Part shown: positions 6,680-31,348 of the stretch, one piece after another | Position numbering within the stretch: the stretch's first letter is position 1 | Layout: each line of letters opens with the position of its first letter | Source of the DNA: Candidatus Methanoperedens sp. | Lineage (GTDB): Archaea; Halobacteriota; Methanosarcinia; Methanosarcinales; Methanoperedenaceae | DNA: 32,000 nucleotides | Direction of reading: 5' to 3' | Assembly: GCA_041494705.1 (NCBI GenBank) | Contig: JBGQBI010000001.1 | Coordinates: 210,001-242,000, forward strand | Notes under the pieces: model-generated | What the model saw: the letters and a program-made list of their open reading frames with translations, nothing else | What the model was told of the DNA's origin: nothing | Databases searched by the model: none | Made by a program: the position numbers and the translations under genes

Positions 6680-7171
6680 TTGAATCTCACAGAACTTTTA
6701 TCAAACCACAGGGAAGCCTTCAGGCAGAAATTCATAGAAGCGCTTGCAAAAAAGAACTCACTTACGCCGGAGCAGACCGCGATTGAATTTAAAGATTTTA
6801 TCGAACAATATGTTGATGAAAAATATAAACATGCGAACCGGCTTGTCAACAGGATAAATGAGATTGAAAAACCCGTCTTTCTCAACATCAGGCGCGACAG
6901 GATGCGCGAGGACAGATGCAAGATATGCGAAGCCAACGAACCCAATGTCCATGCAATCGAAAAAAAATATGGCGGCAGGATTGAACTATTCGAGGTCATC
7001 GAAGACAGGCAGGAGGGGGCGCTTTACCAGATAATTTTTCATGAAGAGGCCGAAGAAAAGAAAATGCCCCTTACAGCAGTAATAAACAAAGGGAATATCC
7101 TGAAGTTCTGGGCTGGTAAAACCGTTGAAGCAGCCGTATATGAAATATATATTAACAAAAGTCTTGCATAA
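6680..7171 (+). CDS. Hypothetical protein; C-terminal half looks thioredoxin-fold-like with a single CKIC motif; apparent TTG start
   Basis: 163-codon ORF with aagga located 7 nt upstream of the TTG. The layout VFLNIRRD...CKICEANEP...IELFEVI...MPLTAVINKGNILKFWAGK resembles a Trx-like beta-alpha-beta arrangement. No family is recognised with certainty. Confidence 0.45.
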   Translation: MNLTELLSNHREAFRQKFIEALAKKNSLTPEQTAIEFKDFIEQYVDEKYKHANRLVNRINEIEKPVFLNIRRDRMREDRCKICEANEPNVHAIEKKYGGRIELFEVIEDRQEGALYQIIFHEEAEEKKMPLTAVINKGNILKFWAGKTVEAAVYEIYINKSLA

Positions 7172-7249
7172 TTCTTGCATAATAATACATAAGAAAACTT
7201 AATATAACAACAGGATTAAACGTGTACAACCACACGGAGGTGAAAATAT

Positions 7250-7414
7250 ATGTGCAGCGTAGGAGATGCCTTTAATATAGAGATACAGGCGCTTGATGTA
7301 AAATGGTACAAGTGCGGTGATTGCAAAAACGAGTTCAGGTGTGTGAGCGTAAAGACAAAACTTGAGTGCCCTTCATGCCATTCCAGCAATGTCAGCAAGC
7401 AGTATAAAGAATAA
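7250..7414 (+). CDS. Small zinc-ribbon protein (54 aa, two CxxC pairs)
   Basis: Below the track size cut-off. GGAGGTGA lies 6 nt upstream of the ATG at 7250. Translation: MCSVGDAFNIEIQALDVKWYKCGDCKNEFRCVSVKTKLECPSCHSSNVSKQYKE. Its stop TAA (7412-7414) overlaps the next ATG as TAATG. Confidence 0.6.
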   Translation: MCSVGDAFNIEIQALDVKWYKCGDCKNEFRCVSVKTKLECPSCHSSNVSKQYKE

Positions 7415-7875
7415 TGACCCCGCTAAATGAAAACGAAATGCTGCTTTTGCGCGGGAAAGAAGGGACGCTGGGCATAGTCAAGGCAGGAGAGAAAGGTCAG
7501 TTTTTCCTTGAAACTGAAACTGAGGAGATAATCCTGGCGCTATCTCCGGATGACCTGCTTGTGGCATCGGGTTTCGGGACTGATAAAACGATTATCAACG
7601 GTCTAAAATGCGTACTTTACATGATTCGTGAGGTGGGTTCACCGTTTATTGTTCTCCCAAAAAAGCATCCAGCGTCAAAACGCCTTAAGATAGTAGTTTC
7701 CGCAGGTGACAGGACGCGGATAAGCTGCAGCATTATCCCCGGGACGCACCCCGAACAGGATATATTGTGCGGAAGCTCCGAGTTTGACGGGATTGAAATT
7801 TCTGGAGTAAAAGGCGGGGTGGAGTTCAAGAATTTAAAAGGCAGGAAAGTAGAAAGGATTCCTTTTGAAATTTAA
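7414..7875 (+). CDS. Hypothetical protein (153 aa), translationally coupled to the zinc-ribbon gene
   Basis: Track ORF with a TAATG junction to the upstream gene. No family recognised. Confidence 0.55.
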   Translation: MTPLNENEMLLLRGKEGTLGIVKAGEKGQFFLETETEEIILALSPDDLLVASGFGTDKTIINGLKCVLYMIREVGSPFIVLPKKHPASKRLKIVVSAGDRTRISCSIIPGTHPEQDILCGSSEFDGIEISGVKGGVEFKNLKGRKVERIPFEI

Positions 7876-7877
7876 AA

Positions 7878-7948
7878 AACCACAGAGAGCACAGAGGACA
7901 CAGAGAAAAAACGAATAATTCTCTGTGCTCTCTGTGTCCTCCGTGGTT
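7878..7948. repeat. Modular hairpin H1: 3x CACAGAG (9-nt spacing), 11-nt A-rich loop, 3x CTCTGTG (9-nt spacing)
   Basis: Left-arm units at 7881-7887, 7890-7896 and 7899-7905. Right-arm units at 7921-7927, 7930-7936 and 7939-7945 (variant ctccgtg). The 30-nt arms are complementary at 25/30 positions. Starts 3 nt after the stop at 7875. Confidence 0.85.
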
Positions 7949-8096
7949 AATTATCTGACCGGGATTGATAATCCAGAATAAATAATATGTAATCAACTTA
8001 TCTATTCAATAGCGGGATAAGAAAATGCGTTTATAAATTCCTATGCGTTAAAAAACTTAAACATCGCAAAAGCGTCAATAAGCCAGACAGTGAGGA

Positions 8097-8168
8097 TGGA
8101 CCCGGCGGGATTCGAACCCGCGGCCTTTGCGTTGCGAACGCAACGATCTACCCCTGATCTACAGGCCC
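8097..8168 (-). tRNA. tRNA-Ala (anticodon CGC), no encoded CCA
   Basis: Reverse complement is GGGCCTGTAGATCAGGGGTAGATCGTTGCGTTCGCAACGCAAAGGCCGCGGGTTCGAATCCCGCCGGGTCCA, which folds into a cloverleaf. Acceptor is GGGCCTG/CGGGTCC with the G3:U70 alanine identity pair. D stem is GATC/GATC, the anticodon stem TTGCG/CGCAA has loop TTCGCAA, and the T arm is GCGGG-TTCGAAT-CCCGC. Confidence 0.92.
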
Positions 8169-8198
8169 TTTAATAAAAGGGAAAAAATGATTTAATAT

Positions 8199-8465
8199 TT
8201 ACATTCTGCCCAGTTCTTCCACTGAGACGCTTTCCACACCGCTCACTTTGCTGAAAGCCTCTTCAACCTTCTCTGTCCCGCCTTCGATATCGCCTACCTT
8301 TACAACAACCATAAGGGCTTTCAGACCGAATGCAATAGGCACTTCCGAGAATCCGTGCAACTTCGCACCTTTCGGGATAGCCTTTGTCAGAGCTTCTTTA
8401 AGTTTATTTAAATCAACATCCATGCCAGAAGGCATGATTCTTATTTTAGCGGCAACTTCTCCCAT
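8199..8465 (-). CDS. Translation elongation factor aEF-1 beta
   Basis: [71 protein letters not shown] matches the ~89-aa archaeal EF-1beta pattern. ATG at 8465 preferred over the GTG at 8474. Confidence 0.9.
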
Positions 8466-8470
8466 TTTCT

Positions 8471-8644
8471 TCACGGACCTTCAAAGCCGCAGCCCGGGCA
8501 CTTATAATTATTGCTCTGGTGTCTGCATGCCGCGCATCTTCCAAGCTCTGCTCCACACTGCGGGCAGGGAAAGCGCACATAACCGTGCTCAATAAGATTT
8601 ACTCCGCATGAAATACATTTTTGTGATTTTTCTCTTCTGGTCAT
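8471..8644 (-). CDS. Four-CxxC zinc-finger protein typically found upstream of aEF-1beta (COG2888-type Zn-ribbon protein)
   Basis: Translation: [62 protein letters not shown] lies upstream of the ATG at 8644. The stop abuts the aEF-1beta start. Confidence 0.8.
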
Positions 8645-8690
8645 AATATTCTCCTGTGGAGCACACATAGAGAATCGAAACCTATTAAAT

Positions 8691-9290
8691 TTATCCTTTA
8701 ATGAGCGTCCCTATTACATTACTTTTAAGCGCGGTTTTCAATCTTCCCGGACAATTGCCATTTATTATCTCGCAATCCATTTTATTTTCCATGAGAAAAT
8801 GCGCAAGATAGGCATCCACACACGTCTCTTTCCCCACCAGTTCCGACGCTTCAAGTTCCTTTTTCAGCACCCCGTCCAGGTATATTCCATCCACATCAGT
8901 AGCTTTTATGAACCTCGCCCCAAGTTTTTGTGCAACCCATGCGGCAATCGTGTCCGAGGTCACATCCCAGGTATGAGGAAGTTCGTCTTTCGTTTTCAGG
9001 AGATTGTAAGGAAGAAGAATATATGCGCCCTTTCCATGGATATTAAGGTTGTCAATATGTTTCACGTCATTCCCATTGCCCAGATAATAGCCATATTGCT
9101 CCATCGCAAGAACAGCCATCCAGTGGGCGGCTTCCTCCGTGGCGCTTATTCTCCGCACGGTATCTGCAAAGATTGAGCCGCCGGGTACTATCAGGATTGT
9201 CTCATCCTCGGAATTTGAATATTCAATTATCTCCCTGACAAGCTCCCTTCCACTGTGAATCAGGCTCCCGCCAATCTTTATGACTATCAT
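8691..9290 (-). CDS. Amino-acid-kinase-fold small-molecule kinase (~199 aa; archaeal COG2054/MfnE-like)
   Basis: [14 protein letters not shown]...[12 protein letters not shown]...[14 protein letters not shown] shows AAK-family motifs. The length fits the short archaeal kinase group rather than isopentenyl phosphate kinase. Start trimmed to the ATG at 9290. Confidence 0.5.
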
Positions 9291-9344
9291 GCTTTTTACA
9301 TAAACTGCAGTATTTAAATATGTATGGCATGATATAGCCAGCAA

Positions 9345-10370
9345 ATGAGAACCATAGACTGGGATTATGAAAAGAACAATATTATCATGATCGACCAGAC
9401 CCTTTTGCCTGCGGAATACAGGATAATCGAATGCAGCACAATAGAGTCTTTATGCGAAGCCATAATCTCCCTGAGGGTAAGAGGCGCTCCCGCCCTTGGC
9501 GCTGCCGGAGGTTTTGGCGTGGCTCTTTCTGCATTTAGAAGTAATGCCTCTTCCTTGGACGCTTTAATTAAAAATATCGAGAATGCCGGCAAAACCCTTA
9601 TTGCCACAAGACCCACGGCAGTAAACCTTTCATGGGGCGTGAAACGTGTCATCAGGGCTGTAGAAGATGCCAGGAACATTAAGGAAGCAAGGATGTTCGC
9701 TCTTGACGAGGCAAAAGCAATCGCGGATGAGGACGTAAAGAAGAATATGCAGCTTGGTGAATATGGGGCGTCTTTGCTTGAGGATGGGGATACGGTGCTT
9801 ACGCATTGCAATGCCGGAAGGCTTGCCTGCGTGGATTGGGGAACGGCGCTCGGGGTTATCCGTTCAGCCCGCGCCGATGGAAAGGACATAAAGGTGATAG
9901 CGTGCGAGACGCGCCCGTTAAACCAGGGAAGCAGGCTGACTGCGTGGGAACTCATGGAAGATAAGATTCCCGTGACGCTAATAACGGACAGCATGTCGGG
10001 TCATGTGATGAGAAAAGGCATGGTTGATAAGGTCATTGTGGGAGCCGACAGGATAACCCAGGATGCAGTATTCAATAAAATCGGGACTTATACCCATTCG
10101 ATTATTGCAAAAGAGCATGGGATACCGTTCTATGTAGCTGCTCCCGTCTCGACATTTGACTTTGAGAGGCTTGAAGATGAGGTCGAGATAGAAATCAGGA
10201 AACCACAAGAATTAAGGTTTTTCGGGAACCGGCAGATAGCGCCCCTTGATGTGGATGTGTATAATCCTGCTTTTGATGCAACCCCGATGGAAAACGTAAC
10301 CGGCATAATCACGGAAAATGGTATATTCTATCCTCCTTTCTTAATCGAAGAAGTCAAAATAAGGGTTTAA
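9345..10370 (+). CDS. eIF-2B alpha/beta/delta-family isomerase (methylthioribose-1-phosphate or ribose-1,5-bisphosphate isomerase)
   Basis: IMIDQTLLP...LRVRGAPALGAAGGFG...RPTAVNL...THCNAG...ETRPLNQGSRLTAWEL...VGADRI is characteristic of the MtnA/aIF-2BI family. Confidence 0.8.
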   Translation: MRTIDWDYEKNNIIMIDQTLLPAEYRIIECSTIESLCEAIISLRVRGAPALGAAGGFGVALSAFRSNASSLDALIKNIENAGKTLIATRPTAVNLSWGVKRVIRAVEDARNIKEARMFALDEAKAIADEDVKKNMQLGEYGASLLEDGDTVLTHCNAGRLACVDWGTALGVIRSARADGKDIKVIACETRPLNQGSRLTAWELMEDKIPVTLITDSMSGHVMRKGMVDKVIVGADRITQDAVFNKIGTYTHSIIAKEHGIPFYVAAPVSTFDFERLEDEVEIEIRKPQELRFFGNRQIAPLDVDVYNPAFDATPMENVTGIITENGIFYPPFLIEEVKIRV

Positions 10371-10490
10371 TTCTCCTATATTTTTATATCATATTTATAT
10401 ATTTTATATAACTTTTTATCCTATTTTTCTTGATTCGGTTCCGATAAAATTAATATACTGGAAGTTAATTGTTATTCAGGGAAGCAAAAT

Positions 10491-10856
10491 ATGAATCAGG
10501 GAAAGATGTCCGAAATATACAATAGCATCCTTCTGGATTTGAAACAGGTGGAGGGAGTAAAAATGCTGGCGCTTGCAGGGCGGGATGGATTCCTCATCGG
10601 CGAACCACCGAATAACGATATGGAGATGTTAACTCTCATGTCGGCAACGATGTTGAGGGCTGCGGAAAAGGTTACAAACAAGCTTGAGAAAGTAAGCCCC
10701 AACCCTGTGGTCGTTGATTATGAAGGGGGAAAACTTATAACCATCGCTGCCGGCCAAAAAGCGCTGATTTCTGTGTTGACAACAAAAGATGCGAGTATTG
10801 AACCTATCATTAATGAACTTGAGAGAACGGCCAGCAGGATAAAAGAGATACTTTAA
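10491..10856 (+). CDS. Roadblock/LC7 domain protein
   Basis: LKQVEGVKMLALAGRDGFLIG...LMSATMLRAAEKV...VVVDYEGGKLITIAAGQKALISVLT matches the Roadblock/LC7 (MglB-like) pattern. Confidence 0.7.
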   Translation: MNQGKMSEIYNSILLDLKQVEGVKMLALAGRDGFLIGEPPNNDMEMLTLMSATMLRAAEKVTNKLEKVSPNPVVVDYEGGKLITIAAGQKALISVLTTKDASIEPIINELERTASRIKEIL

Positions 10857-10923
10857 TCAGATGTACGGATTCCATCGTGGCGCCTGAGAATAAAGTTAAG
10901 TCCAGAAGAAATGTATTAAGAGC

Positions 10924-12096
10924 ATGGCTGTTTCAATAGCTCTTGCAGGAAAACCAAATTCCGGGAAATCAACATTTTTCAAAGCCGTGACTCTTGCAAA
11001 TGTTGAGATTGCAAATTATCCTTTTACCACCATCGACGCCAACCATGGCGTTGCGTATGTGAGGGCAATCTGCCCGTGCAGGGAATTAAAACTCGATTGC
11101 GGAAATTGCAGGGATGGCGTGCGTTTTGTGCCGATAGAAATGATAGATGTCGCGGGACTTGTCCCGGATGCCCACAAGGGGCGCGGGCTCGGCAATGAAT
11201 TTCTTGACAACCTGAGGCAGGCAAAGGCAATTATTCATGTCATAGATGCCTCTGGCGGAACGGATATTGAAGGAAACCCTGTGCCTGTGGGTTCACATGA
11301 CCCGCTGGGCGACATAGAATTCCTTGAGCATGAGATTACGATGTGGATGTTCGGGATTTTAAAGCGCAACTGGGAAAGACTCTCCCGCAAAGTGCAGGCT
11401 GAAGGGTTGAAATTGGAGGAGACAATCGCAGGTCAGCTTGAGGGTGCGGGAATCACTGACGGTCATGTGAAAACGGTACTGACCAAACTGAAACTCCCGC
11501 GCGATAAACCCCAGATGTGGACTGATGAACAGATTATCGAGCTTTCAGACATGTTAAGGGCTGAAAGTAAACCCCTGATAATCGCTGCAAATAAAATTGA
11601 TGCTGCATCACAGGGGAATATTGAGGGGCTTGTGAAGGTCGGCGCAATACCAGTCAGCGCTGCGGCAGAAGTGGCGCTTCGTATGGCTGATAAAGGAGGG
11701 GCGGTAAAATACATACCGGGTGATGCCGATTTTGTGGAATCGCCAAACCTGACCGATGCCCAGAAAGAGGGTCTCCAAAAAATTCGCCTCCTGATGAAGA
11801 AAAACAGCGGCACAGGTATCCAGAAATGCATTAATGAAACTGTGTTCAGGCTCCTTGACCTTGTAGTGGTTTATCCTGTTGAGGATGAGAACAGGTTCAC
11901 TGATAAGATGGGAAGGATTCTTCCAGATGCATTTCTCCTGAAGAAAGGAAGTACACCGAAAGACCTGGCTTTTATGGTTCACACCGATATCGGGAAGGGA
12001 TTCCTCTATGCTGTGGATGCGCGCACCAAGATGAGGCTGGGAGATAAGTACGAGTTGAAGAATGGGGATATTGTGAAGATTGTGGCTGTGAAGTAA
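10924..12096 (+). CDS. Obg-like GTPase (YchF/Drg-type) with C-terminal TGS-like domain
   Basis: G1 motif ALAGKPNSGKST, G2 YPFTT, G3 DVAGLV, G4 ANKID. The C-terminal ...KNGDIVKIVAVK segment is TGS-like. Confidence 0.8.
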   Translation: MAVSIALAGKPNSGKSTFFKAVTLANVEIANYPFTTIDANHGVAYVRAICPCRELKLDCGNCRDGVRFVPIEMIDVAGLVPDAHKGRGLGNEFLDNLRQAKAIIHVIDASGGTDIEGNPVPVGSHDPLGDIEFLEHEITMWMFGILKRNWERLSRKVQAEGLKLEETIAGQLEGAGITDGHVKTVLTKLKLPRDKPQMWTDEQIIELSDMLRAESKPLIIAANKIDAASQGNIEGLVKVGAIPVSAAAEVALRMADKGGAVKYIPGDADFVESPNLTDAQKEGLQKIRLLMKKNSGTGIQKCINETVFRLLDLVVVYPVEDENRFTDKMGRILPDAFLLKKGSTPKDLAFMVHTDIGKGFLYAVDARTKMRLGDKYELKNGDIVKIVAVK

Positions 12097-12151
12097 AATC
12101 AAGAATAAAGGTGTGTGTAATATCTTTCATGTTAAATTTCGTCTAAAGTAA

Positions 12152-12217
12152 CTTTGCGCTCTTGGCGTGCTTTGCGGTGCAGGATTTTCCACCGCAAAGG
12201 GCGCAAAGTACGCAAAG
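12152..12217. repeat. Modular hairpin H2: 3x CTTTGCG (9-nt spacing), 10-nt loop, 3x CGCAAAG (9-nt spacing)
   Basis: Left-arm units at 12152-12158, 12161-12167 (variant cttggcg) and 12170-12176. Right-arm units at 12193-12199, 12202-12208 and 12211-12217. The 28-nt arms are complementary at 23/28 positions. Starts 55 nt after the GTPase stop. Confidence 0.85.
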
Positions 12218-12352
12218 AATTTGCTCAACACCAAACTTTTTACAGTCCCGAATAAAGGAAAAATTCCTAAAATAACATATATGATTCCAGTGAAAAAGCA
12301 GGCATATTTTGCCTAAAGATTTAAATCGTATCAAAGCGATTCATGCTACTAC

Positions 12353-12673
12353 ATGGCAAAAACGAATGACAAGTACCTATATTCTGAGACCGCAGCCGTG
12401 CAGGACGTTTACACCCGGAAGATGACACATTTATCCCCTTCCGTGAAGCTCGTTTTCAAAGTGCTTGAATACCGGGGGCTTATGACTCAAAAAGAACTCG
12501 TTGCAGAAAGTTATCTCCCCCCGAGGACGGTGCGATATGCGCTCTCAAGATTAAAAAAAGAAGGCATACTTGAAGAGCGCCTCTATTATAAGGATGCGCG
12601 CCAGTGCCTCTATGGTGTGAAAAGCCCGCAGCATGATGAGCTATTATCTAATTTCGCATGCGGAATAGTATAG
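12353..12673 (+). CDS. Small winged-helix (MarR/ArsR-like) DNA-binding protein
   Basis: LSPSVKLVFKVLEYRGLMTQKELVAESYLPPRTVRYALSRLKKEGILEE is a typical wHTH recognition-helix and wing layout. Confidence 0.6.
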   Translation: MAKTNDKYLYSETAAVQDVYTRKMTHLSPSVKLVFKVLEYRGLMTQKELVAESYLPPRTVRYALSRLKKEGILEERLYYKDARQCLYGVKSPQHDELLSNFACGIV

Positions 12674-12703
12674 TTTATATTTGTTAAGATTAACTTTGGG
12701 CGT

Positions 12704-13294
12704 ATGGACAGAGCCGGTTTAAGGGAGATAATACATCTTGTGGCTTCTTTACTTGTGCTGACTATCGCATTTTCATATCCCAGTACTGGTATGGAAGCTC
12801 TTGCGATAGCCGCAATTGGAGTAGGTTCGGGGTTCCTCCTGCATGAACTTGCCCATAAATTCACAGCCCAGAGATACGGATATGTGGCAGATTACGAAGC
12901 AAGTCCAATGGGGCTTCTCATGGCAATCGGTCTTTCAGTTCTCACAAAAGGGAATTTCGTATTTGCAGCGCCGGGTGCGGTCATGATTCGCGGCAAATGG
13001 ACTCACACCGAAGACTTATACAGCGAGCCGGCAAAGGAGTTCGCATACATATCTATTTCCGGGGCGGTTGTCAATCTGGCGCTTGCCGTATCATTTTATA
13101 CAGCTTCGCTCTTCGTAGATCAATCAGGTTTGGCGTATGCGGTTCTGAGTAAAAGCGCCTTTATCAATGTTTTTCTTGCAGGATTCAACATGATACCTTT
13201 CGGACCGCTTGACGGCGCCAAAGTATGGCGATATAACCCCGTATTATGGGGACTCGTAGGGATTCCTGCGATAATCCTCTTTTTTATTATATAA
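12704..13294 (+). CDS. Membrane zinc metalloprotease, M50/site-2-protease family
   Basis: HELAHK (HExxH) lies in a TM segment. A second motif FNMIPFGPLDG is present, and the protein has multiple TM helices. Confidence 0.7.
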   Translation: MDRAGLREIIHLVASLLVLTIAFSYPSTGMEALAIAAIGVGSGFLLHELAHKFTAQRYGYVADYEASPMGLLMAIGLSVLTKGNFVFAAPGAVMIRGKWTHTEDLYSEPAKEFAYISISGAVVNLALAVSFYTASLFVDQSGLAYAVLSKSAFINVFLAGFNMIPFGPLDGAKVWRYNPVLWGLVGIPAIILFFII

Positions 13295-13304
13295 TATCAG
13301 GCGC

Positions 13305-13466
13305 TTACTCAACTTTCTTGAATTTATCCCTGGACGCGCCGCACCAGGGGCAAACCCATCCATCAGGAATATCTTCAAAAACCGTGCCGGGTTCGATACC
13401 GCCGTCAGGGTCTCCCACTGCAGGGTCGTAAACATAGTCGCAAAGAGTACATTTCCACTTATCCAT
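13305..13466 (-). CDS. Rubredoxin
   Basis: [53 protein letters not shown] contains the classical CxxC...CPxCG rubredoxin motifs. Start trimmed to the ATG at 13466. Confidence 0.9.
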
Positions 13467-13563
13467 AGTATAGTCATGTTTTTTACAAAACTTAACCATA
13501 TCGCTTAAAAGAAGCCGAATAAAACCAATATGCTTTTAAATAAGAAAAGACGAATGACCTTAA

Positions 13564-14559
<996 letters not shown>

Positions 14560-14560
14560 A

Positions 14561-16379
<1,819 letters not shown>

Positions 16380-16497
16380 AAGTTGCATGTCACTGACCCC
16401 GTACGATGTACGAGGCCTGTGTGTAGCATTTTCCTGATTATTCCATATTATTTACACATGCAATAATAGCCATCGTAATATTTCCTGCATCTTCACG

Positions 16498-16652
16498 CTT
16501 CACTTCATCTCAAACTTCTCAAACCTTTCCTTCTTCGCCCTGCAAATCGGGCAAAGGTCAGGCGGTTCATCCCTCGCACAGAGATAACCGCACACAGTAC
16601 ACCTGTAAACTTCAGCCATTTCTTTTCCTCCTGCTCCTGTTTGTTCCCTTAT
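16498..16652. repeat. Direct repeat copy A (~155 bp), a near-identical duplicate of the 3' end of the FDR gene at 17529-17683
   Basis: By-eye alignment of 16498-16652 with 17529-17683 shows only scattered substitutions up to ...cctgctcct, then decay. Confidence 0.85.
16500..16619 (-). CDS. Stand-alone 39-aa rubredoxin-like mini-ORF created by the duplication (possibly a gene remnant)
   Basis: Translation: [39 protein letters not shown]. Differs at one residue from the C-terminal rubredoxin domain of the FDR gene. GGAGG lies 9 nt upstream of its ATG (16619-16617). Confidence 0.45.
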
Positions 16653-16675
16653 AACCCAATTAAGATAACTTTCTA

Positions 16676-17065
16676 TTATTTATGCCACATCATCGTTTCC
16701 TCTTCCTCACCATGAAGTTGCCAAATTCGCATTCCAAGGTGAGTCACTCGAATCACTTTACCCATTCGTTTACTGTGTGTATTGAAGGCTGGATATTGGG
16801 AAAAACGACGGATAAAACTGGCCACCTCATATTGACCTACTGCCAGACAGACCAAACAATAGTTTGCATGGCATAGCTTGTTATCATAGAAACCAAGATC
16901 ACGTGTAAAAAATGTCACAGAACGAAACTGATGCAGGAGCGATATTATAGCCTCGTCTTTTACCCCCTTGCTCGCGATTTCATGACCAATTTGGCGAACC
17001 TGGATGCGCCAGCTTCGCAGGAGCTGCCGCTGGCTTTCTGGTATGTTCTCATCCAGAATGTTCAT
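16676..17065 (-). CDS. PIN-like toxin (DUF5615-type), partner of the DUF433 antitoxin
   Basis: N-terminus [19 protein letters not shown]...VKDEAIISL...FFTRDLGF matches the DUF5615/PIN-like pattern (xxDENxP...D.ei...TrDkdF). ATGA overlap with the upstream gene (17062-17065). Confidence 0.65.
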
Positions 17066-17316
17066 GCACAGGCAGGCTCCGTCATCAGTTCAGGCGTATG
17101 GGCAGCCAGCGCTTCACGAGCCAGTCGTATAGCTTCAGCAATCGCCTCTTTGATCAGCACCCCGCGCCATTCCTCGATAATTGCCTCCCATACGATGCCG
17201 CTTTCTACCTGTTCCAGCACATCTTTAACTAAAATTCGTGTTCCTATGAAGGTTGGTTCGCCATGACAGATAGTCGGGTCGGACACAATGTATCGTCCTA
17301 AGGTTTTTATTGTCAT
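17062..17316 (-). CDS. DUF433-family antitoxin-like DNA-binding protein
   Basis: IVSDPTICHGEPTFIGTRILVKDVLEQVESG...IKEAIAEAIRLA is the characteristic DUF433 core (GxPxIxGTRIxV). Confidence 0.75.
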   Translation of the reverse strand: MTIKTLGRYIVSDPTICHGEPTFIGTRILVKDVLEQVESGIVWEAIIEEWRGVLIKEAIAEAIRLAREALAAHTPELMTEPACA

Positions 17317-17528
17317 ACGTTTTCCTTTGAAGGGTTGGTCATGTTATTTGATTATAATCCTTAAACCTACTTAAATATGTTCATAATGATAATTGCGGTG
17401 GCTTTTCATAACGGCTATGGTCGAACCGCATGCATGCGGCGCGCCTGCCGGAAAACCCGCCCCGCACTTTTCTAACCTGCGTTCCATCCAATTTTTGAAT
17501 TTATTTAGGTCTATAAATTTATCTAACT

Positions 17529-17683
17529 CTTCACTTCATCCCAAACTTCTCGAACCTCTCCTTCTTCGCCCTGCAAATCGGGCAAAGGTCAGGCGGCTCA
17601 TCCCTCGCACAGAGATAACCGCACACAGTACACCTGTAAACTTCAGCCATTTCTTTTCCTCCTGCTCCTTTCTGTTCCATTAT
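17529..17683. repeat. Direct repeat copy B, the 3' end (rubredoxin domain and linker) of the intact FDR gene
   Basis: See copy A. Confidence 0.85.
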
Positions 17684-18028
17684 ACCCGGATAACCCTTCT
17701 CGTAATACTCCTGCGGACGCCGCTCGGGGATAGGGTCATGCGGCTTCCTTCCTGAAATCCAGTCGTCATTAACATAGAGCGTACAAAGGCAGCACCCGTA
17801 CTCTGCGATATCAGGATCGCGGTAATTGCACGGGCAAATTATGTCCATGTCATCAGCAAGCAAACCGCTTGCAATCCTGCACGGGCATGACAGATAGCCA
17901 TAGCGATGCTCGTTATCCCATAACCCCTGAAGGATGTCATCAAGCTCATCCTTGTTTGGGTTGAACCGGTAGCCGTCCTCGTCAGCGAGCTTTTTCATTT
18001 CGGTGAACATTTCAGCAACAGTTCTCAT
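17531..18028 (-). CDS. Ferredoxin:thioredoxin-reductase-like catalytic subunit fused to a C-terminal rubredoxin domain (ferredoxin:disulfide reductase, FDR type)
   Basis: FTRc cysteine signature YLSCPCRIASGLLADDMDIICPCNYRDPDIAEYGCCLC, followed by a linker and the rubredoxin CTVCGY...CPICRA. This is the same architecture as the Methanosarcina acetivorans FDR. Confidence 0.8.
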   Translation of the reverse strand: MRTVAEMFTEMKKLADEDGYRFNPNKDELDDILQGLWDNEHRYGYLSCPCRIASGLLADDMDIICPCNYRDPDIAEYGCCLCTLYVNDDWISGRKPHDPIPERRPQEYYEKGYPGIMEQKGAGGKEMAEVYRCTVCGYLCARDEPPDLCPICRAKKERFEKFGMK

Positions 18029-18106
18029 AACACATTGACCTCTCAGTTATAGCATGGTTCTTAAATCTACATAATTTTATGCCTATCATTTAAGCAATTT
18101 TTTCGG

Positions 18107-18168
18107 ACGGGATAACAGGATTGACAGGATAAAATATTACAAAATCCAGTTCATCCTGTTAATCCTGT
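18107..18168. repeat. Modular hairpin H3: ACGGGAT/ACAGGAT/ACAGGAT, 13-nt A-rich loop, ATCCAGT/ATCCTGT/ATCCTGT
   Basis: Left-arm units at 18107-18113, 18115-18121 and 18124-18130. Right-arm units at 18144-18150, 18153-18159 and 18162-18168 (9-nt spacing). Lies 55 nt downstream of the minus-strand wHTH gene stop at 18224. Confidence 0.8.
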
Positions 18169-18223
18169 CAGATTTTCTTTTTTTAACGGTTATTTATGAA
18201 CTTGACTATAATACATGTATTTT

Positions 18224-18574
18224 TCATGCCAGTATCATTTCATTCTTATGAATCGGCATTCCCTGTTTAGCAGCTTCCCGTTCTGCTAAACGCAAATTCA
18301 ATTCATTCAGGAATTTGATAAGCCTTTTAACCACTATATCATCCTTGTTTATCTGGTACAGTTTGGCGTTGCCTACCTGCCGCGTCATTGTGACAAGGCT
18401 GAGCTCTTCCAATAATGGCAAAGCTTTCATGAGAGTTGTGTAATGGATGCCAGCCTCATCCGCTATGTCTGTGAGCGTGAGGTCTATATTCTGGTATTCC
18501 CAGAGGACATCCAGTATTTTTGCTGCTGCTGAGCCTGTGAAGATTTTTTCGAGAGACTTTTTGATCATTCTCAT
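18224..18574 (-). CDS. Winged-helix transcriptional regulator, last gene of the por-containing array
   Basis: AAKILDVLWEYQNIDLTLTDIADEAGIHYTTLMKALPLLEELSLVTMTRQVGNAKLY shows an HTH plus wing. ATGA overlap with the upstream grx-like gene. Confidence 0.6.
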   Translation of the reverse strand: MRMIKKSLEKIFTGSAAAKILDVLWEYQNIDLTLTDIADEAGIHYTTLMKALPLLEELSLVTMTRQVGNAKLYQINKDDIVVKRLIKFLNELNLRLAEREAAKQGMPIHKNEMILA

Positions 18575-18828
18575 AACCCGAGAGCCTCTCTCAATTTATC
18601 CTCATAGAACCCTACAATTACTTTATTGCCAACTACAATGGTCGGGAACCGCAAGCCTCCGCTCAGTTTTATCACTTCATCGCAAACCTCATCCTTTTCC
18701 CTGCCGTCTAATTTATCCACATCCACATAATCAAATTCAATCCCGTTTTCTTTTAAAAACCGCTTCGTTGCTTTGCAGTGCACGCATGTGCTGAGCGTGT
18801 AAAGTTTAGGTTTGATTTTCGTCTTCAT
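18571..18828 (-). CDS. Glutaredoxin-like small redox protein (CVHC active site)
   Basis: KLYTLSTCVHCKATKRFLKENGIEFDYVDVD...FPTIVVGNKVIVGF shows the Grx/NrdH-like fold signature. ATGA overlaps on both sides. Confidence 0.8.
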   Translation of the reverse strand: MKTKIKPKLYTLSTCVHCKATKRFLKENGIEFDYVDVDKLDGREKDEVCDEVIKLSGGLRFPTIVVGNKVIVGFYEDKLREALGL

Positions 18829-19787
18829 GGTCCATGCATCTCCCTGTGTTCCTCGGTAACAGCATGATGTTCTTCAGGCGGGGCTATTTCGCAAATCTCA
18901 GGCGAGCCTTTCTCCTTATAATGCAGGTTCCATTTCTTGCATACCCACATCTGGAGTTTCTTGATATCTTCATCGCTCATGTGGCGGAATCGCCCCTGCA
19001 TCATCAAATAATCCCGGACTGATTTCATTTTCCCGGGCTTGAATGTGATTTTTTTCTCGCCGTTCTCGACTTCATACAAAGTCCACATCCCGCTTTCAAC
19101 CGCACGCTTTGTAACTTCAACGGTCTTTGCCGGGTCCATTTTCCAGCCCGGGATGCACGGCGTGAACATATGGAGAAAACGGAATCCCTTTATGTTTTTT
19201 GCCTTCTCAACTTTCCTTATGAAATCAAGAGGATGCCCGATTGACAAAGTGGCATAATACGGTATCTCATGAGCTGCCACGATTTCGCCGAGATTTTTCT
19301 TAAATCGCCTGTTTCCCTGGACTTTTGTTCCAACGGGCGTGGTTGTGGTCCATGCGCCAAAAGGCGTCCCTCCGCTTCGCTGTATGCCTGTGTTCATATA
19401 CGCCTCGTTGTCAAGGCAGATATAAATGACATCATCATTGCGCTCAGCCGCTCCCGACATGCTCTGCAAACCGATATCATACGTCCCGCCGTCGCCCGCA
19501 AACCCTACTGCTGTGACCTTTTTTCCTTTTTTCTCAAAAGCAGCCTGCATACCTGTCAGGCAGGCGCCCGTATTCTCAAATGCGGTGTGGAAGAATGGCA
19601 CTTTCCATGCGCCATAAGGAAAAGTGGTTCCGAATACTACGGCGCAGCTTGCAGGGACATATACTGAAGTATCTTTTCCCAGTACACGAATAGCATTGCG
19701 GATGGACATCGCCACGCCGCACCCGGGGCATGCGGTATGTCCTGCCGTGAACAGGTTGTCATCAGGCAGGTCCTTTATTGTAATCAT
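18825..19787 (-). CDS. porB: 2-oxoacid (probably pyruvate):ferredoxin oxidoreductase beta subunit (TPP-binding)
   Basis: Contains CPGCG near the N-terminus, GDGGTYDIGLQSMSGAAERNDDVIYICLDNEAYMNTGIQRS (TPP motif) and a [4Fe-4S] Cys pattern. Follows the alpha subunit with an ATGA overlap. Confidence 0.8.
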   Translation of the reverse strand: MITIKDLPDDNLFTAGHTACPGCGVAMSIRNAIRVLGKDTSVYVPASCAVVFGTTFPYGAWKVPFFHTAFENTGACLTGMQAAFEKKGKKVTAVGFAGDGGTYDIGLQSMSGAAERNDDVIYICLDNEAYMNTGIQRSGGTPFGAWTTTTPVGTKVQGNRRFKKNLGEIVAAHEIPYYATLSIGHPLDFIRKVEKAKNIKGFRFLHMFTPCIPGWKMDPAKTVEVTKRAVESGMWTLYEVENGEKKITFKPGKMKSVRDYLMMQGRFRHMSDEDIKKLQMWVCKKWNLHYKEKGSPEICEIAPPEEHHAVTEEHREMHGP

Positions 19788-28238: not shown

Positions 28239-28303
28239 TGTCGTCGTCGGCGTCGTCTCTGAGTGCCTGCAGGCACGAAGTACCAGGGCGGGTGTCTGCA
28301 TGA
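28238..28303 (+). CDS. 21-codon bridging mini-ORF (MSSSASSLSACRHEVPGRVSA) linking the 110-aa gene to the Rep-like gene; possibly only a coupling or leader element
   Basis: Its ATG (28238-28240) overlaps the upstream TAA as TAATG. Its TGA (28301-28303) overlaps the ATG at 28300 as ATGA. The sequence is a GC-rich patch with a (GTC)n-like tract and the 14-bp palindrome gtgcctgcaggcac (28263-28276). Confidence 0.3.
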   Translation: MSSSASSLSACRHEVPGRVSA

Positions 28304-29631
28304 ACGTAAATCTTTTATCCTCTATACATAGGGGAAAGCCTACAAGTCAGATTGTTTTACCTCTAACAACGTCTGCGGATGCTTATGTTCAAAACACCAA
28401 CTTTGACTCGCATTCTTTAGACAGTTCAAAACATGTTACTCTCGTTGAGGTCAAAAATATGGATGATTACCACAAAAACCATAATATCATTCATCTGGAC
28501 TCAATGACTGACCTTACGCGGCCATCGATGGATTATATCAATTACATTTCTGAATATGCGCATCTCGACAAAGCGGCGGCAGCCGTGGCCGCCACATCCG
28601 AGGTCGTGTACTACAATGGCTATAAATGCGAAAGTGGGCACGATGTTTATAACCCTTATTATGTTGGCGGCCCCTATTCCCCATATAAACGGGATAAAGT
28701 TTCGAGCAATTCTGCTTATCGGTTAGCTCATCGCCTATCGAAATTACAAGACCTTTTGCCAAATGAATCTCTTTATAATATTGGTATAGATTTGACGTTC
28801 CCGGATTATGTCAGTAAAATAGCATATCAAGACCCCAAAAAAGCCGAAGCTATCGCTACTAAATGCGTCAATGTTTTTCTAAAATCCCTCTCTAAAGAAA
28901 AGCGGTGGGTTCGTCATAAAGGCCAAAAACTGTTTAATTCTTTCAATGTTCATCTATGGCACAGTCATAACCCTGACTGCGTAGATGAAATTCATACCCC
29001 CACTGTTCCTCATTTACATGTACATTTGAATTTAATAAATGCGGTTTGTGATAGCAAGGATCCTAATTATAAATTAACTCGGTTCAATCCTATTATACCC
29101 AGATATGCGATAAAAGTGGCTTGGCAATATGCTTTATTTAAACAGGGTTTTAATGTTCCCGAACCTGATTTTTATATCCATCATTGTTCTCTAAAACATA
29201 AAGGTAAGTTAACTCATCGGATTCGTTACTGTGGGCGGTCTCCGCTTAATGATTTATATTCTTATTTTAACGATACTAAGTTTGATAAATCTAACGTCCA
29301 AACCACTTTTAATGAGTATTTAGTTAATTACAAAAACCCCAGGCATACATGCGGAGCGTTGCGGTTATTATCAAAGTTGCTTCCGGTTGAAGATATCGAG
29401 GATGAAGAAATCTGTCCGGTGTGTTCTGAAAAATCGGAATATCTCGGTAAAATCACAAAAGATGAAATTCATCAAATGGTGAGTGATGGTTCTGTTTCTG
29501 TTGTACATTGGTCATCACGAAAAAGGCGGTATTTTGCTATCGAAAGGGGTTCTATGGACAGCGTGAGCTATCTTGATTACTTTGATACTTCCGAGTTACA
29601 CGAGGCTCTGGCTTATTCTAATGGGGTATAA
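28300..29631 (+). CDS. Candidate HUH-superfamily rolling-circle replication initiator / IS91 (Y2-transposase)-like protein with a C-terminal CxxC element
   Basis: By-eye motif resemblance. Motif-1-like GIDLTFPD is present. FNVHLWHSHNP...VPHLHVHLNLIN parallels the IS91/pGT5-type VLHTWG...HPHLHxLV block. KLTHRIRYCGRSPLND lies where the YLxRY catalytic-Tyr segment sits. CPVCSE is also present. No Walker A motif seen. Coding status is solid; function is inferred. Confidence 0.5.
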   Translation: MNVNLLSSIHRGKPTSQIVLPLTTSADAYVQNTNFDSHSLDSSKHVTLVEVKNMDDYHKNHNIIHLDSMTDLTRPSMDYINYISEYAHLDKAAAAVAATSEVVYYNGYKCESGHDVYNPYYVGGPYSPYKRDKVSSNSAYRLAHRLSKLQDLLPNESLYNIGIDLTFPDYVSKIAYQDPKKAEAIATKCVNVFLKSLSKEKRWVRHKGQKLFNSFNVHLWHSHNPDCVDEIHTPTVPHLHVHLNLINAVCDSKDPNYKLTRFNPIIPRYAIKVAWQYALFKQGFNVPEPDFYIHHCSLKHKGKLTHRIRYCGRSPLNDLYSYFNDTKFDKSNVQTTFNEYLVNYKNPRHTCGALRLLSKLLPVEDIEDEEICPVCSEKSEYLGKITKDEIHQMVSDGSVSVVHWSSRKRRYFAIERGSMDSVSYLDYFDTSELHEALAYSNGV

Positions 29632-29749: not shown

Positions 29750-29779
29750 ATGTACATCTAATGTACATTCAATGTACAT
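29750..29779. promoter_or_regulatory. Three copies of the 8-bp palindrome ATGTACAT at exact 11-bp phasing (iterons/operator)
   Basis: Copies at 29750-29757, 29761-29768 and 29772-29779. Lies between the Rep-like stop (29631) and the ATG at 29793. Confidence 0.65.
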
Positions 29780-29792
29780 GGTGATTTAAAAT

Positions 29793-30206
29793 ATGACTGA
29801 AGTATTCTGTGACTATTGCGGCAATCCCTTTTCTACAAGAGGAATCCGCTTACATAAACTACATTGCAAGGACAGACCAAAAACAACGGAAGTACATGAG
29901 AAGAACGGGATAGTACAACATCAAGAAGAGCGGCCGTTAAATCCATCTACAAGCGTTGTAGATACAAAAATAAAGGCTTCTACATCAGTTGAAGTACTGC
30001 CGGAGAACATCATAAGTACTGAAAAATACGCAGAAACGGAAATTGTACAAAATCAAGAAGAATCGCCGTTAAACCCTTCTACATCTGAAGTACAAACAGA
30101 TGTACAAAAAGACGATTCACAGGGCGATGACGGCGCATGGGTGGCAGGCGGTCTGCTGGGCCTTGGATTGCTTGGTGGCTTAATCGCCTGGATGAGGGGC
30201 CGTTAA
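29793..30206 (+). CDS. Membrane-anchored C2HC zinc-finger protein with an internal ~44-aa repeat
   Basis: N-terminus CDYCGNPFSTRGIRLHKLHC. Repeats are GIVQHQEERPLNPSTSVVDT and EIVQNQEESPLNPSTSEVQT. C-terminal TM helix is GAWVAGGLLGLGLLGGLIAWM. Confidence 0.6.
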   Translation: MTEVFCDYCGNPFSTRGIRLHKLHCKDRPKTTEVHEKNGIVQHQEERPLNPSTSVVDTKIKASTSVEVLPENIISTEKYAETEIVQNQEESPLNPSTSEVQTDVQKDDSQGDDGAWVAGGLLGLGLLGGLIAWMRGR

Positions 30207-31114: not shown

Positions 31115-31140
31115 ATTCTTTACCTTCTTTAAGTTCTCTA

Positions 31141-31203
31141 TGGAACTTATAGAACCTATAGAATGGGTTATTATAAATACTTTGTGGAACTTATGGAACT
31201 CAT
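31141..31203. promoter_or_regulatory. Divergent promoter/operator: paired repeats TGGAACTTAT-AGAACCTAT and TGGAACTTAT-GGAACTCAT flanking a TATA box (ttataaat, 31171-31178)
   Basis: The exact 10-mer TGGAACTTAT occurs at 31141-31150 and 31185-31194, each followed by a degenerate copy. The TATA element sits ~24-31 nt upstream of the ATG at 31202, suggesting a leaderless or short-leader transcript. Confidence 0.5.
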
Positions 31204-31348
31204 GGCAATTCTCGGAACTACGAAAGTATCTCAGGGTGGTAAGGTTACTTTGATTGAGTCGGTACGTGAGCGCATCAACGTTAAGGAAGGCGACATTATT
31301 GTTTTTGAGGAGCTATCGAAGGGTAACATTATAATCAGAAAAGGGTAA
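31202..31348 (+). CDS. AbrB/SpoVT-type DNA-binding protein (48 aa)
   Basis: MAILGTTKVSQGGKVTLIESVRERINVKEGDIIVFEELSKGNIIIRKG is a classical AbrB-like layout. Start trimmed from the track's 31163 to the ATG at 31202. Confidence 0.6.
   Translation: MAILGTTKVSQGGKVTLIESVRERINVKEGDIIVFEELSKGNIIIRKG

Follow-up and report, generated by a model that had tools for sequence, protein, structure and literature searches.

Convergent arrays of the heptamer GGGAATC occur in intergenic DNA of Xanthomonas, with the G-rich array first and 70–75 pairs per genome; they can form a stem-loop or cruciform, and their unit number differs between relatives (Rehm et al. 2015, PMC4692102). Short tandemly repeated repetitive (STRR) sequences form hairpins in filamentous cyanobacteria, for example between hupS and hupL, and it has been proposed that they stabilise transcripts (PMC2670836). 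Repetitive extragenic palindromic (REP) sequences and REPINs are short, non-autonomous extragenic palindromes that are dispersed without target duplication, often lie at gene 3′ ends and undergo concerted evolution (PMC3116915, PMC3733652). Direct repeats of a further heptamer, TAACTGA, are common to Beggiatoaceae, cyanobacteria and Bacteroidetes, and relatives lack them at the same loci; horizontal spread has been suspected (MacGregor 2015, PMC4679880). Here we report three modular hairpins, H1, H2 and H3, in a 32,000-nucleotide (nt) stretch of Candidatus Methanoperedens sp. DNA (hereafter the window; our coverage of the source genome is these 32 kb). H1–H3 are recent insertions, lying in 138–195 nt of extra DNA at A/T-rich gene ends. 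They are best read as members of a dispersed, mobile superfamily of REP/STRR-like palindromes, for which the tandem-heptamer hairpins of cyanobacteria and Xanthomonas, together with REP/REPIN, are the nearest in kind.

H1 (7878–7948) starts 3 nt past the TAA stop codon (7873–7875) of a gene for a 153-residue protein (7414–7875), and consists of two arms (7878–7907 and 7919–7948) around a loop (7908–7918). The left arm carries CACAGAG at 7881, 7890 and 7899 (CACAGAG-AG-CACAGAG-GA-CACAGAG), and the right arm carries CTCTGTG at 7921 and 7930, followed by CTCCGTG at 7939 (CTCTGTG-CT-CTCTGTG-TC-CTCCGTG). The arms are complementary at 25 of 30 positions, with four of the five mismatches in the 2-nt linkers. 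These linkers, AG and GA on the left and CT and TC on the right, are offset by a register of one unit, and when the arms are paired with a 9-nt shift they are 94–100% complementary over 16–17 nt. H2 (12152–12217) lies between the gene for an Obg-like GTPase and a small winged helix-turn-helix (wHTH) gene located 135 nt downstream, and is paired at 23 of 28 positions. Its left arm consists of CTTTGCG, CTTGGCG and CTTTGCG(GTG), its loop is CAGGATTTTC and its right arm consists of (CAC)CGCAAAG, CGCAAAG and CGCAAAG. H3 (18107–18170) lies between a wHTH open reading frame (ORF) and a ferredoxin:thioredoxin reductase (FTR) gene, both on the minus strand. It comprises ACGGGAT (18107), ACAGGAT (18115) and ACAGGAT (18124), the loop AAAATATTACAAA, and ATCCAGT (18144), ATCCTGT (18153) and ATCCTGT (18162), with 19-nt core arms that are 89% complementary. 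H2 and H3 each have three units per arm with a 9-nt period. All three hairpins are intergenic, with a gene 3′ end 3–56 nt away in each case.

An earlier note on this DNA had described H1 as a 71-nt inverted repeat with CACAGAG arms paired at 25 of 30 positions, the recurrence of its three-plus-three design at H2 and H3, and the siting of all three by gene 3′ ends. The siting holds, and our coordinates, self-matching of the arms at successive lags and Tandem Repeats Finder, which returns period-9 arrays at 7881–7907, 12193–12217 and 18143–18168, agree on the architecture. The description of all three loops as A-rich does not extend to H2.

The three hairpins are real and far exceed chance expectation. 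Folded as RNA, H1, H2 and H3 have energies of −39.8, −39.8 and −29.9 kcal/mol (z = −9.4, −5.7 and −5.7), with none of 200 shuffles as stable, and the corresponding DNA folds have z scores of −6.9, −5.9 and −4.3. A detector for a unit present twice at period p and then twice as its reverse complement finds four period-9 loci in the window, compared with 0.02 per order-1 shuffle. Only seven long hairpins occur in 293 kb of Methanoperedenaceae DNA, and six of them are 9-nt periodic, compared with a single, non-periodic one in a Markov control. Three of these six belong to the window, and H3 falls slightly below the detector threshold.

We compared the window with contigs of relatives obtained by exact-protein look-ups, in which the identity of the MtnA protein is 94–98% (H1 and H2 loci) and that of the reductase is approximately 80–94% (H3 locus). 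None of the relatives covering the H1 or the H2 locus has that hairpin, and the gene order is unchanged: H1 is not found in L121, L122, L209, L210 or L211, and H2 is not found in L122, L207, L209 or L210. At H1, a 167-nt block (7881–8047) has no counterpart in these five contigs. It begins exactly at the first CACAGAG, the hairpin forming its left edge. A 9-bp direct repeat, TTAAAAAAC, bounds the block; its left copy (7872–7880) overlaps the stop codon and its right copy (8048–8056) is, on the minus strand, the T6 run just downstream of a tRNA-Ala(CGC) gene (8097–8168, minus strand) that is convergent with the 153-residue protein gene. The block is inserted between these two genes, exactly at the stop codon and the tRNA oligo-T. 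The gap from the stop codon to the tRNA gene is approximately 8 nt in L121 and L122 and 25–45 nt in L209, L210 and L211. Within the block, the hairpin is followed by a tail on the plus strand (7949–7974), composed of AATTATCTGACCGGGATTGAT and a mini-hairpin, GGATT-GAT-AATCC (7962–7974).

On the other side of the tRNA-Ala gene, L121, which lacks H1, carries at 8775–8815 the array ATCTGCG-TTT-ATCCGCG-TTC-ATCTGCGG with a 10-nt period, which is present neither in the window nor in L122. A Logan contig with an identical 153-residue protein gene (SRR29605729_203875, L001) terminates 25 nt past the stop codon, inside H1, which suggests that such hairpins probably interrupt short-read assemblies.

The H2 block (12112–12249, 138 nt) is flanked by a second 9-bp direct repeat, GAATAAAGG (12103–12111 and 12250–12258), and is nested within an older insertion of approximately 59 nt that is common to the window and L122. 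The spacer at this site is 59 nt in L207, L209 and L210, and L122 carries approximately 59 nt more. A few bases from the site of the block, L122 also contains a perfect 10-bp tandem duplication (AAGGAAAAAT twice, at 12760–12790), which may mark a hotspot or a footprint.

H3 lies in a 195-nt spacer on the minus strand (18029–18223), between the stop codon of the wHTH ORF (18224) and the start of the FTR gene (18028). The corresponding spacer in L219 and L220 is 28 nt, leaving approximately 165 nt of extra DNA in the window, H3 included. The wHTH gene and the H3 block together form an inserted cassette (18032–18567, minus strand) that splits the overlap between the glutaredoxin and FTR genes and is flanked by a 10-bp direct repeat, TTCTCATAAC (18022–18031 and 18568–18577). 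L213, L216 and L217 retain the overlap, of the stop codon of the glutaredoxin gene with the start codon of the reductase gene; H3 is present neither in these contigs nor in L219. The presence or absence of such hairpins offers fine-scale markers for strain discrimination.

In L219 and L220, a two-gene cassette with an 81-residue ORF and a divergent 111-residue wHTH gene, flanked by an 11-bp repeat (GTTATGAGAAC), splits the same glutaredoxin/FTR overlap, and in L222–L227 the cassette lies between the genes for MetRS and a PUA-PAPS reductase (window, 18224–18574, minus strand; L219, 2632–3336; L222, 2586–3336). The 111-residue wHTH family has 114 homologues, all in Methanoperedens. The window cassette has lost the 81-residue protein gene, and the start codon of FTR, which is duplicated there, is joined to its wHTH ORF. 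This two-gene wHTH cassette behaves as a mobile module.

H1 also has homologous copies at sites that are not orthologous. Two Methanoperedenaceae contigs, L113 (uncultured archaeon LFW-280_3_1) and L134, carry H1-type copies that match H1 in the right-arm linkers, in the variant unit CTCCGTGG and in a tail of approximately 30 nt (GGTTRATTA..TC..CRGGATTRAT), which is common to them through GGGATTGAT (7969 in the window). The L134 copy is not found in L141, although the flanks are 94–96% identical. Identical duplicate hairpins occur inside single contigs, such as L067, and nested or mosaic hairpins occur in L125, L235, L042 and L245. In L235 a CACAGAG hairpin lies inside a CGCAAAG hairpin, and in L125 a CGCAAAG hairpin is broken, precisely between two units, by a block with a CACGGAT hairpin. 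The earlier note had preferred selection on structure to copies of a mobile repeat, and that preference is not supported, as the homologous copies in L113 and L134 show H1 to be a copy of a repeat; the common generating or propagating mechanism that it also considered is supported by the shared blueprint. We lean, by a modest degree, towards the view that H1–H3 are mobile or concertedly evolving selfish repeats, with possible secondary effects at RNA 3′ ends.

The unit words, previously described as unrelated in sequence, each belong to a widely distributed family. Matches to the pattern CACAGAGNNCACAGAG...CTCTGTGNNCTCTGTG over 185,579 species genomes place CACAGAG hairpins of the H1 design in more than a dozen phyla, the stretches of genome that carry them numbering at least 119. 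Hosts among the matches listed are Planctomycetota, Verrucomicrobiota, Chlamydiota, Acidobacteriota, Chloroflexota, Nitrospirota, Thermodesulfobacteriota, Myxococcota, Gemmatimonadota, Bacteroidota, Bacillota, Pseudomonadota (Beta- and Gammaproteobacteria) and Methanosarcinales, and isolates with the hairpin include Sorangium (two complete genomes), Hymenobacter, Gemmatirosa and Bacteroides. BLAST located it in Gemmatirosa megaplasmids and in Bacteroides finegoldii, where it fills the gmd–fcl spacer inside an operon; it is unannotated everywhere. All three unit types of the window are found in IMG/VR viral contigs, with a marked polarity: CACAGAG forms the 5′ arm in 31 stretches and is reversed in 0, and the corresponding counts are 10 and 0 for ACAGGAT, 2 and 1 for CGCAAAG, and 2 and 0 for GATTGCA. 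Relative to this family polarity H2 is inside-out, which is rare. A single word, CACAGAG, thus builds one and the same polar modular hairpin in viral contigs, methane-cycling archaea and more than a dozen bacterial phyla, with neither an annotation nor an Rfam family, and its presence across domains requires some agent of spread or maintenance.

Both viral hairpins of the CGCAAAG type in purine-first orientation (L259, 140–200; L260, 115–180) lie less than 200 nt from the start of the fetched DNA; such contig starts may be genome termini, or simply assembly break points.

The construction rules of the family were derived from 153 non-redundant CACAGAG hairpins among the matches listed. Their arms contain two to four units, with three plus three the most frequent arrangement, and the median loop is 20 nt. 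Unit spacing is 9 nt in 441 instances, with 43 instances of 8 nt and 17 of 11 nt, and linkers consist of a purine and then A or T (GA, AA, AT, GG). The 7-mers are conserved, and the linkers and loops vary freely. In the best register, linker complementarity between arms is 0.60, compared with 0.50 ± 0.02 for shuffled linkers; perfectly matching linkers occur in 60 of the 153 hairpins, compared with 29 expected, and the best register is often one unit off. The concentration of mismatches in the linkers, noted previously at H1, thus holds for the whole CACAGAG family, and the arms change by whole units. Co-variation between the arms had been proposed as a check on selected structure. The linkers are only weakly complementary, so covariation says little in favour of selected pairing outside the 7-mers, and a per-position scan for compensatory changes could carry no signal, as the search pattern itself demanded perfect units. 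The same bacterial loci contain 31 further tandem-word hairpins, built from other words with periods of 7–10 nt, of which 22 are purine-first and six pyrimidine-first (p = 0.004).

Alternatively, the hairpins might arise in place: slippage amplifies a unit, template switching makes the palindrome, and the words shared between genomes are convergent. The variable unit number, the frequent one-unit offset between arms, the occurrence of periods of 7, 8, 9 and 10 nt, the 10-bp tandem duplication at the H2 site of L122 and the single-unit mini-hairpin beside H1 all fit such an origin. However, linkers, a variant unit and a tail are common to the non-orthologous copies, single contigs contain identical duplicates, and the hairpins come together with flanking non-repeat DNA. 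Strict polarity and words common to many phyla are, moreover, unexpected from random slippage, and we regard an in-place origin as highly improbable.

Compared with the described systems, H1–H3 share with the Xanthomonas GGGAATC arrays an intergenic position, arms of tandem short units, convergent arrays and a variable unit number. The Xanthomonas arrays have a 7-nt period without a free linker, form G-quadruplexes and have been reported from one genus and Nostoc, whereas the hairpins described here have a 9-nt period (a 7-nt word plus a 2-nt linker), other words, an archaeal host and a range that spans many phyla and viruses. STRR hairpins are similar in that short tandem units fold into hairpins in intergenic or intra-operon spacers, and H1–H3 have the head-to-tail unit arms, convergent orientation and intergenic siting that define inverted tandem-heptamer repeats. 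STRR units are, however, 7 bp long and form a cyanobacterial family, whereas the period is 9 nt at all window loci. The TAACTGA repeats likewise involve one short word tandemly repeated in intergenic DNA of distant phyla, but they are direct repeats (only one inverted set has been reported), lie mostly just upstream of start codons and have a 7-nt period.

Like REP/REPIN, the hairpins are short, dispersed palindromes without target duplication. A REP arm is a single imperfect palindrome, whereas the arms here are tandem arrays, and REP families are lineage-specific, whereas the 7-mer here is identical across phyla. The GTAG/CGTC terminal tag (PMC3733652) does not occur in the termini of H1–H3, which are AACC...GGTT (H1), AACTTTGCG...CGCAAAGAA (H2) and GACGGGAT...ATCCTGTC (H3). 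REP/REPIN are also defined by a RAYT (Y1 transposase) gene, which REPs typically flank, and none lies beside any hairpin among the fetched loci. MITEs (miniature inverted-repeat transposable elements), such as Correia elements, resemble the hairpins in their small size, inverted arms, A/T-rich intergenic sites and presence or absence between strains, and the 9-bp direct repeats flanking the window blocks add to the likeness. However, the combination of terminal inverted repeats with an adjacent target-site duplication of fixed length was not found: there is no duplication directly beside 152 listed hairpins, the repeat-bounded blocks lack terminal inverted repeats, and no parent insertion sequence was identified. 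Tandem-unit hairpins have been unexplained in cyanobacteria and Xanthomonas for decades, and the wide family described here gives power for phylogenetic profiling.

In anatomy, each arm is a short array, usually of two to four copies of a 7-bp word at 9-bp spacing, pointing 5′ to 3′ toward the dyad, and arms gain or lose whole 9-nt units by slippage, with the 2-nt linkers and the loop free to vary. We infer that, as selfish repeats, the hairpins would be spread by a trans-acting agent within and between genomes, viruses included; the bacterial hairpins leave no target duplication of their own. The 7-mers would be words that a protein recognises, and any influence on RNA 3′ ends would be secondary and not the reason for the existence of the elements.

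Several findings weigh against this reading. All-against-all clustering of ORFs from the 119 listed loci revealed no hairpin-linked gene, only common housekeeping families, and a phmmer search of the ORFs of the fetched loci with Y1_Tnp (Methanoperedens) matched only L207 and the fragments in L209/L210, none of them beside a hairpin. No target-site duplication was detected around 152 listed CACAGAG hairpins, where shared 6-mers number 2, compared with 3.7 expected from shuffled pairings. The inserted blocks of the window lack terminal inverted repeats and differ in size and in the position of the hairpin, and the 9-bp repeats that bound blocks may be the product of a different process. Between L134 and L141, the element replaces approximately 30 nt instead of being cleanly inserted. 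The purine-rich 5′ arm bias is general, being found more weakly among non-periodic long hairpins (25 versus 11), and the flanks of CACAGAG hairpins are A-rich upstream and T-rich downstream. Both observations would suit an RNA-level role in bacteria resembling that of a terminator, and the flanks could also reflect preferred targeting of A/T-rich DNA. Finally, in L044/L099 (Nitrosomonadales) and L230/L238 (related viruses), orthologous hairpins keep every heptamer while nearby neutral sequence has diverged and the loops and some linkers are unalignable. Retention of the heptamers while the loops diverge suggests selection (on the words, or for a host function), ongoing gene conversion or a single site being targeted more than once. 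L044 and L099 differ at another shared site, where one slot is filled by a 9-nt GCC-type hairpin and by an 8-nt CACC-type hairpin.

We also considered whether the 9-nt unit might itself derive from 9-bp target duplications through repeated insertion and excision. Periods of 7–10 nt coexist, adjacent linkers differ and the hairpins lack flanking duplications, and the origin was rejected; the agreement between 9 bp and 9 nt is probably a coincidence.

Some of these findings would be expected if the hairpins were selected RNA elements at gene ends, acting as bidirectional terminators, exonuclease protectors or intercistronic stabilisers. A purine-rich 5′ arm and a pyrimidine-rich 3′ arm would then be a functional design, the 3′ arm forming only a weak RNA:DNA hybrid whichever direction is read. 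Such a role would account for the position of H1–H3 close to gene 3′ ends, their very stable RNA folds, the A-rich and T-rich bacterial flanks, the strict polarity, the extension of the purine bias to non-periodic hairpins, and the heptamers kept in orthologous hairpins. The gmd–fcl hairpin of Bacteroides finegoldii, in addition, resembles the STRR hairpins between hupS and hupL for which transcript stabilisation was proposed (PMC2670836).

No signature of a classical terminator accompanies H1–H3. A G+C-rich stem of approximately 5–14 bp with a loop of 3–8 nt, followed directly by a U-tract on the transcribed strand, defines an intrinsic terminator, and a consensus scan of 7000–19000 returned no such site at H1, H2 or H3, which have loops of 10–13 nt, stems of 27–30 nt with internal loops, and no T-run afterwards on the strand of the upstream gene. 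More generally, loops of 10–40 nt and 2 × 2 internal loops are atypical of intrinsic terminators. Archaeal termination generally uses oligo-T. Requiring at least five T on the transcribed strand at the gene 3′ end, we found none after H1 (plus strand) or H3 (minus strand); at H2, a T5 run starts 18 nt downstream of the hairpin. The earlier statement that no T-run lies on the transcribed side needs a small qualification: T-runs on the strand opposite to the relevant gene do flank H1 (T6, 7879–7874, minus strand) and H3 (TTTTCTTTTTTT, 18174–18185, plus strand). With Rfam 15, only tRNA reached the gathering threshold in the window and 18 hairpin-bearing loci, and relaxed thresholds returned only generic matches to miRNA-precursor-like hairpins, far below their own thresholds.

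The hairpins are, furthermore, missing at orthologous loci of close relatives. The earlier note had proposed a distinct class of 3′-end or RNA-stability elements and had named beforehand a lack of conservation at orthologous loci as counting against it; because the orthologous loci lack all three hairpins, a conserved 3′-end or RNA-stability role in this archaeon is unsupported. Selection on structure alone would also leave the identical 7-mers across phyla and the lacking linker covariation unexplained. Taken together, a primary role as selected RNA elements appears unlikely, and H1–H3-type elements should not be annotated as conserved Methanoperedens terminators.

A different reading starts from the words and not from the RNA. 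The hairpins would be arrays of binding sites on double-stranded DNA for an operator-binding protein, a nucleoid-associated protein or a recombinase, with one 7-bp word per subunit and an oligomer accounting for the 9-bp spacing and the inversion of the arms. In favour of such binding are the conservation of the 7-mers, set against 2-nt spacers and loops that vary freely, and the fixed orientation of the units to the dyad, and wHTH genes lie 135 nt downstream of H2 and just upstream of H3. A weaker 9-nt-periodic hairpin, H4 (31115–31164), with TTCTTTA/TATAGAA units, also fits. It is situated in a divergent promoter region between a 111-residue ORF (minus strand) and a small AbrB/SpoVT-like gene (approximately 31205–31348) that has further TGGAACTNA repeats, and 20 nt past it is a tandem repeat, TGGAACTTA TGGAACTCA (region 31115–31205). 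H4 may be an operator array rather than a gene-end element, and is a candidate for a separate class. For H1–H3, however, no protein family is common to the loci, the two wHTH proteins are not related, and the 106-residue wHTH gene near H2 is present in relatives that lack H2. For one word to occur in bacteria, archaea and viruses, a universal or mobile binder would be needed, and none was found. We consider binding arrays quite unlikely as the explanation of H1–H3, and continue to favour selfish repeats.

An undescribed machinery spanning both prokaryotic domains and their viruses, which would read or write words of 7 nt in a polar manner and with a constant step, here 9 nt, is a more speculative reading that we consider doubtful. 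It might take the form of a new class of non-autonomous mobile element with ends that are arrays of recognition words. Alternatively, repeats might be added to both 3′ ends of a DNA break, which would then be joined; this alone would produce a constant 5′-arm word, linkers that are largely independent between the arms, differing numbers of units, loops that are hypervariable and the absence of a target duplication.

Resemblances to other short motifs were judged to be due to chance, and none extends over the loci or the family. ACAGGAT resembles CsrA-binding GGA motifs, but CsrA is absent from archaea, and in the hairpin the motif is paired. TTNNCCACA at the hairpin foot resembles a DnaA box, and CACAGAG the V(D)J heptamer CACAGTG. 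The hairpin ends resemble integron attC sites but have neither GTTRRRY nor a cassette array. In the H3 loop (18131–18143), AAATATTAC fits the nick-site nonanucleotide NANTATTAC of CRESS-DNA virus Rep, to which the other loops have no match. A literature search with 16-mers returned only unrelated primers, plus one Bacteroides fragilis primer that overlaps such an arm by chance.

The gene neighbours in the window encode YcaO, HdrD-like, Mer and FrhB-like proteins and an MtnA-like protein (9345–10370), for which the nearest named relatives are all Methanoperedens. The rubredoxin/Mer/GTPase neighbourhood is an insertion hotspot across Methanoperedens. L207 has an IS200-like Y1 transposase gene (8003–8446) between the rubredoxin and Mer genes, with fragments at approximately the same place in L209 and L210, and in L122 an IS240-type DDE transposase and a methyltransferase are inserted after the GTPase. 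Other repeats lie elsewhere in the window. After the YcaO gene, a 24-nt repeat is present in 2.5 copies (2200–2272; AAAAACCTTTGAGAAAGGTTTATC) with alternating palindromic halves, AAACCTTT and AAAGGTTT, and more hairpins follow at 2280–2375, upstream of a TfuA-like gene. Between the ORFs at 28300–29631 and 29793–30206, the palindrome ATGTACAT occurs three times at 11–12-nt spacing (29750–29779), and this array may be an operator for a transcription factor.

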